A stretch of 64,000 nt of DNA from Escherichia coli (GTDB taxonomy: Bacteria > Pseudomonadota > Gammaproteobacteria > Enterobacterales > Enterobacteriaceae): assembly GCF_013315695.1 (NCBI RefSeq), contig NZ_CP054353.1; one strand, 5' to 3'. How positions within the stretch are numbered: position 1 is the first letter of the stretch; each line of letters begins with the position of its first letter. Below are positions 6,001 to 9,000 of the stretch, piece by piece. Position numbers: made by a program.

Positions 6001-9000
6001 AATGAGCATCAACAGCGCAATCCCGCCAGCCTGACAAAGCTGATGACGGGCTATGTCGTGGATCGCGCTATCGATAGTCATCGCATTACGCCAGACGATA
6101 TTGTCACCGTGGGGCGTGATGCGTGGGCGAAAGATAATCCGGTGTTTGTCGGTTCTTCACTGATGTTTTTGAAAGAGGGCGATCGCGTATCGGTACGTGA
6201 TTTAAGCCGTGGTTTAATTGTGGATTCCGGAAATGACGCTTGTGTTGCACTGGCTGACTATATTGCCGGTGGGCAACGGCAGTTTGTTGAAATGATGAAC
6301 AACTATGCCGAGAAGCTGCATCTCAAGGATACGCATTTTGAAACAGTGCATGGTCTGGATGCACCTGGCCAGCATAGCTCGGCTTATGATTTAGCTGTGC
6401 TTTCTCGCGCTATCATCCACGGCGAGCCCGAGTTTTATCATATGTACAGTGAGAAAAGCCTCACCTGGAACGGTATCACCCAGCAAAACCGTAACGGGTT
6501 ATTGTGGGATAAAACCATGAATGTTGACGGCCTGAAAACGGGTCATACTTCTGGTGCCGGGTTTAATCTCATTGCTTCGGCTGTAGATGGGCAGCGTCGT
6601 CTCATTGCAGTGGTAATGGGGGCTGACAGCGCAAAAGGTCGTGAGGAAGAGGCAAGAAAATTACTGCGTTGGGGTCAACAAAACTTTACTACGGTGCAAA
6701 TTTTGCACCGTGGGAAAAAGGTTGGTACGGAACGCATCTGGTATGGCGATAAAGAAAATATCGCCCTGGGAACGGAACAAGAGTTCTGGATGGTGCTACC
6801 GAAAGCCGAAATTCCACATATCAAAGCCAAATATACCCTTGATGGTAAAGAACTCACCGCGCCAATTAGCGCCCATCAGCGGGTAGGGGAAATTGAACTT
6901 TACGACCGTGATAAACAGGTGGCGCACTGGCCGCTGGTTACCCTGGAATCTGTCGGGGAAGGCAGCATGTTTTCCCGGCTGAGTGATTATTTCCACCATA
7001 AGGACTGACCTTTCTTTTGCAGCAGACTGGCAGGAGTGCGAGTCTGCTCGCATAATCAACACTCATTCCTTGTGGTTTTAATATTGCAACTATACTGTAT
7101 ATAAAAGGGTCTTCCCCTGTTGTGGTGGGTGGTACATAATTGAGTGATTTTCAAACACCACACAGTACCTTTATGGTGTCTCTTTTTACATGAGAGGGAA
7201 TTCTTATGAGTGTGCCGCAAACAAAAGCTGAACTGCTTTTAGCTATTGATAAAAATTTTAGTAAATTAATTAGTTACCTCAACACAATCCCACCAGAAAT
7301 TACTTCAGATAAATCAATGGACGGACACGCCAAAGGAACGGAGATGAGTGTTCGTGATCTCGTTTCGTATCTGCTTGGATGGAATGCTCTTGTTGTAAAG
7401 TGGATCGCTTCTGATGCTAAAGGTCTGCCTGTCGATTTTCCGGAAACTGGCTATAAATGGAATCAGCTTGGCCTTCTTGCTCAAAAATTTTACTCAGATT
7501 ACAGTGAGTTAAGTTATGAGTTGTTAGTAGCTGAACTTCAGACTGTAAAAAATGAGATTGTGAACCTTATTAATGATCGTACCGATGATATTTTGTATGG
7601 AAGACCATGGTACACAAAATGGACGATGGGGAGAATGATCTCATTTAACACATCTTCGCCTTACGCCAACGCTAATGGAAGATTAAGAAAGTGGGCAAAA
7701 AATAATAATATCAGTTTAAAGTAAGCTTCAGAATGAAATTATATGGACGAAAAATCCCTCTATGCCCATATCCTTAACCTGACTGCACCATGGCAGGTTA
7801 AATCCCTTACCCTCGATGAAAATGCAGGTTCCGTTACTGTTACAGTCGGAATTGCTGAAAATACTCAGTTAACCTGTCCGACCTGCAGGAAATCCTGTTC
7901 TGTTCACGATCACCGACATCGTAAATGGCGCCACCTTGATACCTGCCAGTTCATGACATTAGTAGAAGCCGATGTTCCCCGCGTTATGTGCCCGGAGCAT
8001 GGCTGCCAGACTCTGCCTGTACCGTGGGCAGGTTCCGGCAGTCGGTACACTCTGCTGTTCGAATCGTTCGTGCTCTCATGGCTTAAAATCAGCACCGTTG
8101 ATGCGGTCAGAAAACAACTTAAACTTAGCTGGAATGCCGTTGACGGCATCATGACCCGCGCGGTTAAGCGAGGCCTGTCGCGGATTAAAAAGCCTTTATC
8201 AGTGCGTCATATGAATGTAGACGAAGTCGCCTTTAAAAAAGGGCATAGGTATATAACCGTGGTATCTGATCGCGACGGGCGGGCACTGGCATTAACCGAT
8301 GATCGTGGCACAGAGAGTCTTGCCAGCTATCTCCGTTCGCTTACTGACAGTCAGTTGTTGGCCATCAAAACACTGTCGATGGACATGAATGCGGGCTATA
8401 TAAGAGCAGCGCGTATCCATTTACCCAATGCGGTCGAGAAAATCGCCTTCGATCGCTTCCATGTGGCGAAGCAACTGGGCGAAGTGGTTGATAAAACCCG
8501 CCAGAATGAACATCCGCACCTCCCTGTTGAAAGTCGTCGTCAGGCCAAAGGTACCCGCTTCCTGTGGCAGTACAGCGACAAATGGATGACTGAGTCCCGG
8601 CAGGAAAAGCTGATGTGGTTGCGGGAACAGATGCAACAGACAAGCCAGTGCTGGACACTGAAAGAGCTGGCAAAAAATATCTGGGATCGCCCCTGGAGCA
8701 CAGAACGCAGGAATGACTGGTTGCAGTGGATATCGCTGGCGTCTGAATGTGATGTGCCGATGATGAAAAACGCAGCGAAAACCATTAAAAAACGGTTATA
8801 CGGAATACTGAATGCAATGCGTCATCGCGTCTCGAATGGAAATGCGGAGGCGCTGAACAGCAAGATCAGACTGCTGAGGATAAAGGCCAGGGGATACCGA
8901 AACCGGGAACGCTTTAAACTGGGAGTTATGTTCCACTATGGGAAACTGAATATGGCGTACTGAGTCTTCCCACCATGATCGGGGAAGACCCATATAAAAA

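Follow-up and report, generated by a model that had tools for sequence, protein, structure and literature searches.

The ISL3-family insertion sequence (IS) ISEc53 carries a ClbS-like passenger gene, and it and its relatives ISKox3 and ISCfr12 choose, in our reading, the LexA operators of SOS genes as their insertion sites. The copy at hand lies at positions 7107-8991 of a stretch of 64,000 nucleotides from Escherichia coli (NCBI RefSeq assembly GCF_013315695.1, contig NZ_CP054353.1), hereafter the window, where it occupies the operator of sbmC (gyrI); all positions, those of the preliminary description of this DNA included, refer to the whole stretch. The element is an intact ISEc53, an ISL3-family IS with one passenger gene. 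We consider the overall reading, ISEc53 with a ClbS-like passenger and a targeting of LexA operators, highly probable; its core, that the ISKox3/ISCfr12/ISEc53 clade inserts within the 8-bp spacer of LexA operators to leave the arrangement CTGT-N8-element-N8-ACAG, is close to certain. The open-access literature yielded no description of LexA-box or SOS-box targeting by ISL3, by ISKox3 or by any IS, and we lean, though not strongly, towards regarding the targeting as both real and hitherto undescribed, in which case the clade might be called "SOS-box hunters".

Insertion into the sbmC LexA operator

The restored target, TACTGTATATAAAAACAGTA, is exactly the empty-site sequence of K-12 and appears in Table 4 of PMC3009722 as the LexA motif of sbmC. 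The element has split this operator, TACTGT-ATATAAAA-ACAGTA, so that CTGT lies on one side of it and ACAG on the other, each with a copy of the 8-bp spacer. The features of the site and of the element are as follows.

5836-7008 (+): dacD, upstream neighbour, outside the element
7093-7098 (no strand): left half of the split sbmC LexA operator, TACTGT, by comparison with the K-12 empty site
7099-7106 (no strand): left copy of the 8-bp target-site duplication ATATAAAA, the LexA box spacer
7107-7129 (+): left inverted repeat of ISEc53, GGGTCTTCCCCTGTTGTGGTGGG; the same end is found in ISKox3 and ISCfr12
7130-7205 (+): 5' leader of the cargo gene, with ribosome-binding site GAGAGGGAA and a possible promoter of poor quality, TTCAAA-16 nt-TATGGT; its sequence from 7141 on matches the DNA that precedes the chromosomal gene in Citrobacter freundii
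7206-7724 (+): cargo gene, ClbS/DfsB family (DUF1706), 172 aa, ATG start, WP_000115885.1
7743-8963 (+): ISL3-family transposase gene, 406 aa, NCBIfam NF033550
8969-8991 (-): right inverted repeat of ISEc53, CCCACCATGATCGGGGAAGACCC on the + strand
8992-8999 (no strand): right copy of the 8-bp target-site duplication ATATAAAA
9000-9005 (no strand): right half of the split sbmC LexA operator, ACAGTA
9020-9493 (+): sbmC (gyrI), an SOS gene, now parted from its promoter by the element

The element measures 1885 bp; of the 23 positions of its inverted repeats 19 agree, and its two reading frames are unbroken, the transposase gene starting 18 nt past the cargo stop codon. The transposase scores 328 bits against NCBIfam NF033550 (cut-off 180), and the Pfam domains Zn_ribbon_ISL3, HTH_Tnp_ISL3 and DDE_Tnp_ISL3 are on record for the same product. 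ISEc53 as annotated in RefSeq/PGAP shows no sequence difference from the window element, and many records of RefSeq-annotated copies align to it at 99.6-100% identity over 1885-1901 bp. The G+C content of the two genes is 37.6% (cargo) and 50.4% (transposase). The preliminary description had placed a 172-aa open reading frame (ORF) between the left repeat and an ISL3 transposase, next to sbmC, and this arrangement is the one found. It had also held the gene to be brought in by the IS; in K-12, the dacD-sbmC interval is uninterrupted and contains neither the IS nor a clbS-like gene, so the cargo gene has arrived with the element.

The same description had the element landing next to another DNA-damage protection gene. 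The adjacency stands, and it is no coincidence: the insertion targeted a LexA operator, and the neighbourhood of sbmC is explained by the habit of a clade whose members, with or without cargo, insert into such operators. One might still suppose that the position reflects chance or inheritance, for instance a single old insertion having been spread by recombination with the nearby yersiniabactin island; this island does spread by homologous recombination, and the same junction is common to 80 genomes of several lineages, Nissle 1917 and ATCC 25922 among them. We find this highly improbable, given that in strain EC16 the identical sbmC position, duplication included, is taken by another element, ISKox3, that a clade element also sits at the sbmC box in the opposite orientation (both orientations occur), and that dozens of further insertions have a LexA box of some other gene or species at their centre. 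Inheritance may account for part of the 80 genomes, but not for the choice of site. A single intact CTGT-N8-ACAG occurs in the whole 64-kb window.

A target rule across the clade

Insertion into the LexA-operator spacer is supported by a survey in which the 23-nt right end alone was scanned against species-representative genomes and metagenome contigs. ACAG stands exactly at +9 to +12 in 71 of 96 distinct right flanks, with a single mismatch in 17 more, and at every other offset it occurs 0-1 times (naive binomial P=7e-149). The consensus of these flanks, ATATATAT-ACAG-TA, is the right half of the LexA consensus, and CTGT is present on the left in 32 of the 37 elements for which both flanks were available. 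The first gene reading away from the element, assigned by eye, is UmuD-like in seven cases, DinI-like in four, SbmC in four and DinD in two; representatives of these neighbours (UmuD-type, DinI, SbmC, DinD) were confirmed with NCBIfam. The flanks are no different in elements from Yersinia and Providencia, where transposase identity falls to 73% and 64%, respectively.

Cargo-bearing copies were recovered through the exact protein sequence. The search for other copies of the IS with the same cargo, which the preliminary description had proposed, led to boxes at dinD, symE, a plasmid dinI-like gene and umuD; these sites, with those of two cargo-less relatives, are listed here.

Cargo-bearing copy, dinD: AACTGT-ATATAAAC-ACAGTT
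Cargo-bearing copy, symE: CCTGG-ATATATCA-TCAGTA
Cargo-bearing copy, DinI-like gene of pUTI89-type plasmids: GCTGT-ATGTATAT-ACAGTA
Cargo-bearing copy, between a dinI-like gene and umuDC: TACTGT-ATTAATGT-ACAGTG
Cargo-bearing copy, inside an IS3-family gene (which we take to be the dinS box): GCTGT-ATTTGTCT-CCAGTA
ISCfr12, no cargo: CACTGT-ATATATAT-ACAGTC
ISKox3, no cargo, IncX3 NDM-5 plasmid pNDM5_EBJ003: AGCTGT-ATGCATAT-ACAGTA

On pNDM5_EBJ003, the neighbours of ISKox3 are a small gene and one for an S24 peptidase (UmuD-like); the element lies in the upstream box of the operon and not within the UmuD-like coding sequence.

Several observations count against so strict a rule. The commonest E. 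coli site, in fimB, is merely LexA-box-like (GATGG-ATATATAT-ACACTT), and the usual fimB allele keeps an exact duplication of only 5 bp; in two metagenome contigs the right side of the fimB site has ATATATAT complete, so that the TA run of the usual allele may have lost 3 bp later on. Several flanks from Candidatus Symbiopectobacterium are off-motif (e.g. CCACG, ACAAA, ACATA), and 15 of the 37 elements combine a left flank from one box with a right flank from another. The Symbiopectobacterium flanks suggest that in this IS-expanded symbiont genome either targeting is relaxed or the sites were rearranged later, while the mismatched flanks could stem from recombination between copies or from chimeras of metagenome assembly. 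An Achromobacter element, 46% identical, lacks the CTGT flank at two sites, which are too few to draw the boundary of the clade.

Two side observations belong here. In Candidatus Symbiopectobacterium the element is present many times over, most copies lying at contig ends; and one of the mismatched elements joins the left flank of the IS3-gene site to the right flank of fimB.

What reads the target

The choice of target would seem to be a property of the transposase and not of the cargo. How the transposase might find its site is a separate matter, and here the LexA protein itself has to be considered, either as a tether, with the transposase drawn to operator-bound LexA, or as an obstacle, with insertion proceeding once LexA has gone during the SOS response. 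Most sites are genuine SOS operators, the imperfect one of symE (CTGG..TCAG) included, and the flank consensus reproduces the full LexA consensus down to the AT spacer and the outer T/A. However, insertion is exactly in register at poor boxes as well (fimB and others), and no convincing LexA-like domain was found in the transposase. A dependence on LexA is in our view rather unlikely. Direct reading of a TGT-(AT)4-ACA shape is favoured because the register is kept exactly at poor boxes such as that of fimB; since genuine operators predominate, LexA could still play a part, as a guide or as a block lifted in SOS.

A DNA-binding domain shared by transposase and LexA was considered and rejected, the similarity found by BLASTP (27% over 62 aa, single-comparison E=0.008) not being meaningful. 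It concerns the N-terminal DNA-binding domain of LexA and residues 280-334 of the transposase, a region common to all ISL3 transposases, and is probably due to chance.

That the cargo might instead be an accessory transposition factor steering the element to SOS boxes is suggested by the position of its gene upstream of the transposase gene, 18 nt apart, and by reports that ClbS binds DNA, but we give cargo-guided targeting next to no credence and have rejected it: ISKox3 and ISCfr12 use the same kind of site without cargo, ISKox3 even at the identical sbmC position, and the relatives that are 64-73% identical are also cargo-less.

Regulation at the split operator

Neither junction recreates the missing LexA half-site, so LexA control of the sbmC promoter should be lost. 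The best candidate for this promoter would be TTGTGG at 7070-7075, followed after a 17-nt spacer by TACTGT at 7093-7098, the operator half thus probably doubling as the -10 hexamer of sbmC. Both hexamers stay to the left of the element, from where transcription would run through the cargo and transposase genes to sbmC; this read-through may be de-repressed, free of LexA control.

Two negative results count against the function proposed for the cargo. No LexA box with at most one mismatch lies inside the element upstream of the cargo gene (7000-7210), and scanning 6950-9100 for promoters gave none of consensus grade, whether in the left end or reading outward from the right end. The only result of that scan was CTGGCA-18-CATAAT at 7027-7056, upstream of the site; since the element itself holds no consensus-grade promoter, what we say of promoters amounts to weak inference. 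The weak TTCAAA-16-TATGGT of the cargo leader is kept in outline in the Citrobacter homologue. SOS regulation of the cargo through an internal LexA box was considered separately and set aside, there being no box with at most one mismatch in 7000-7210.

The cargo protein

The claim that the 172-aa ORF at 7206-7724 encodes a ClbS-like DUF1706 protein was borne out in full. Residues 1-165 match positions 1-166 of the 166-position Pfam model DUF1706 (PF08020) with E=3.3e-54, and the protein is 100% identical over its 172 residues to chain A of PDB 5COF. The next-best solved match is ClbS (PDB 6ANR; E=1.1e-55, 54% identity), and four other solved DUF1706 structures are matched as well. The family assignment rests on Pfam and PDB since no NCBIfam model matches the protein. 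A four-helix-bundle fold follows from the identity to the solved 5COF_A, the wording being that of the RefSeq family name.

Tyr55 is invariant in ten aligned family members (ClbS, the cargo protein and eight homologues). In ClbS, Y55 is the catalytic residue, and the Y55F variant no longer protects, according to a passage of 10.1101/431098 that cites Tripathi 2017. Against four homologues, the dN/dS of the cargo gene is 0.13-0.22, and the gene is, by this measure, under purifying selection. The N-terminus, MSVPQTKAELLLAIDKNF, read by eye, has no hydrophobic signal-like stretch. The cargo protein thus appears to be a cytoplasmic ClbS-type hydrolase, and it would act as ClbS does, by a Tyr55-based hydrolytic opening of the electrophilic cyclopropane. 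Silpe et al. (2022) found that every ClbS-like protein they expressed gave protection from colibactin, down to 26.8% identity; the protective set includes two other proteins of 172 aa, from E. coli 69 (QDM73539) and Dickeya dadantii (WP_038909824), and their list of homologues contains WP_000115885.1 itself, at 53.6% identity to ClbS. The listed cluster members do not include QDM73539. On these comparisons, we think it probable, with some reserve, that the cargo confers immunity to colibactin specifically. As a putative colibactin-immunity enzyme, it would therefore make ISEc53 a vehicle for the horizontal spread of colibactin resistance.

ClbS is the cyclopropane hydrolase that gives carriers of the pks (colibactin) island their self-resistance, and the resemblance to it extends to the Pfam family, the fold and the conserved Tyr55. 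In contrast to ClbS, the cargo gene is IS-borne and belongs to no pks island, its product is six residues longer at the C-terminus, and it belongs to a subfamily of its own, of 172-aa proteins with 70-91% identity across the Enterobacterales.

A point against this function is the presence of the element in colibactin producers that already carry clbS, so that immunity cannot be its sole benefit. It may be that the protein protects DNA or detoxifies an electrophile without colibactin being its natural target, as a hydrolase of another genotoxin or as a DNA-binding protector. Its mere 54% identity to ClbS and its occurrence in pks+ strains with clbS would fit such a role, as would the close chromosomal homologues in Citrobacter, Proteus, Edwardsiella and Dickeya, some in habitats without known colibactin producers. 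However, the invariance of the catalytic Tyr55 and the uniform protection reported by Silpe et al. (2022), which reached down to 26.8% identity and included two 172-aa proteins, make a target other than colibactin unlikely.

A third possibility, raised in passages of 10.1101/2025.11.17.686825, is that the cargo is the precursor of a secreted bacteriocin akin to the sibling lethal factor DfsB of Paenibacillus dendritiformis, in keeping with the family name ClbS/DfsB and with a match to PDB 5CIV, the "sibling bacteriocin"; we hold it to be very unlikely, for DfsB is a distant member of the same DUF1706 family (E=8e-19, as against 1e-55 for ClbS) that is secreted and processed into a toxin, whereas the cargo protein shows no sign of secretion, its N-terminus MSVPQTKAELLLAIDKNF lacking a signal-like stretch, and the 172-aa proteins of E. 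coli 69 and D. dadantii protect E. coli from within (Silpe et al., 2022).

Distribution and earlier descriptions

Both the element and its cargo are already known: they have been named, are widespread and have been discussed. Of 5426 complete E. coli genomes, 656 contain at least 80% of ISEc53, be it on a chromosome or on a plasmid, and so do 203 PLSDB plasmids; for the sequence of the cargo protein, at least 1000 contigs are on record. Beyond the 80 genomes with the sbmC junction, the fimB junction was counted in 407 complete genomes (Nissle 1917 among them), the plasmid DinI-like site in 235, dinD in six and symE in one.

The preprint of Maklin et al. (2025; 10.1101/2025.11.17.686825) describes, in the passages concerned, a DUF1706/dfsB gene, structurally ClbS-like, beside a single ISL3 family transposase, and terms the unit the clbS-like transposon. 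These passages place the gene on pUTI89-like plasmids and on chromosomes of the sequence types ST131, ST69 and ST95, report it in many pks+ isolates, and argue for mobile colibactin immunity from structural similarity while stating that experiments are still needed. The gene is the same as ours; the same passages contain no IS name, mapped ends or target sites. A study of ST95 lists ISEc53 and a ClbS/DfsB protein together as pUTI89/chromosome genes.

The expectation that an IS-borne gene of this kind would be unusual thus fails against a named element, the genome and plasmid counts above, the crystal structure 5COF and a preprint. Nor can the gene be called an orphan in the strict sense. The strain Nissle 1917 is pks+, and it shares the sbmC insertion, as does ATCC 25922; in a 35-kb stretch surrounding this insertion in Nissle 1917 there are other islands but no clb genes. 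Many pks+ isolates carry the gene, as passages of 10.1101/2025.11.17.686825 report. The observation of a cargo in an IS consequently adds little, and it is the specificity for LexA operators that appears to be new.

Relatives and origin of the cargo

ISKox3 and ISCfr12 (ISL3, 1316 bp) share with ISEc53 the inverted repeats, the 8-bp duplication and the LexA-box targets, and their transposase genes are ~85-88% identical to that of ISEc53 at the DNA level from the start codon onward. In contrast to ISEc53, neither has a passenger; the cargo module of ISEc53, of ~600 bp, replaces the short leader that precedes the transposase start codon in these relatives.

Within the Enterobacterales, cargo homologues with 70-91% identity are frequent. 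In Citrobacter freundii the gene is chromosomal, and the homology covers window positions 7141-7744 only, the part absent from ISKox3. Homologues in Edwardsiella tarda, in Proteus and in an island resembling integrative and conjugative elements (ICE-like) are 85-91% identical and retain a recognisable left repeat but no working transposase; a decayed 5' stub of the transposase gene is kept in E. tarda and in the ICE-like island, and none in the Proteus copy. The E. tarda and Proteus relics are flanked by CTGT-N8, and the ICE-like island (AcaB, topoisomerase III, ParE-like) is common to several species of Enterobacterales. A cargo that outlives its transposase fits selection on the cargo.

Other members of the clade also carry additional DNA. 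A 1761-bp element has, downstream of the transposase, a 57-aa ORF resembling the C-terminal end of a FosA/glyoxalase-type protein, and Rahnella elements of 1684 bp have ~370 extra bases between left repeat and transposase, with a 51-aa ORF in one copy.

The wider window

The window contains tRNA-Asn genes at 20680, 23089 and 24913. The preliminary description had noted that no colibactin island accompanies them, and no clb genes were found at any of the three. The third is followed by amn, shiA, fragments of an inverse autotransporter (yeeJ-like) and then the yersiniabactin island. The DNA that separates shiA from the yersiniabactin island includes two ORFs, of 489 and 268 aa, at 31357-33765 (-); they match models of inverse-autotransporter/intimin-type adhesins in part only and look like remnants of a yeeJ-type gene. 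At 39990-55567 (-), the yersiniabactin synthetases look broken, irp1 being represented by three ORFs (1193, 413 and 1558 aa) and irp2 by one of 1865 aa, with a 616-nt gap before irp1, while the neighbouring small genes look intact. The broken irp genes are either real pseudogenes or products of indel errors in the assembly.

Implications and comparison with known systems

The target rule would explain why elements of this clade have been met again and again beside umuD, dinI, sbmC and dinD, including the "umuD-ISKox3" arrangement of IncX3 NDM plasmids. Because the target is a LexA box, each insertion would free one gene from SOS control. The rule hence predicts the deregulation of one SOS gene per insertion, error-prone polymerases included, with possible effects on mutagenesis and on survival under stress; if it holds, the genes freed from LexA include umuDC-type polymerases, dinI, sbmC, dinD, symE and the impCAB-like operons of plasmids. 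In one orientation, the genes of the element would in turn fall behind an unrepressed SOS promoter, and ISEc53 would be a mobile genotoxin-immunity cassette wired into the DNA-damage regulon. Should LexA occupancy block or guide insertion, transposition itself would be coupled to DNA damage. From an epidemiological standpoint, ISEc53 is fixed in pandemic lineages of extraintestinal pathogenic E. coli (as at fimB, with its 407 complete genomes), to which it may give colibactin immunity. For annotators, the rule offers a simple check, CTGT-N8-element-N8-ACAG. A natural DDE transposase with specificity at the level of an operator might also serve for site-directed insertion.

Passengers in ISL3 elements are not without parallel. 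ISPpu12 is an ISL3 element with extra genes inside its inverted repeats; these passengers differ from that of ISEc53, and we know of no SOS-box targeting by passenger-bearing ISL3 elements of the ISPpu12 kind. Fixed targets are familiar from IS1397 and ISKpn1, which insert into REP (repetitive extragenic) palindromes, from Tn7, which uses attTn7, and from the Tn402-type "res hunters". Like these, the ISEc53 clade uses a defined position in a recurrent host sequence; unlike them, it appears to have taken as its target the operator of a transcription factor, the LexA box.

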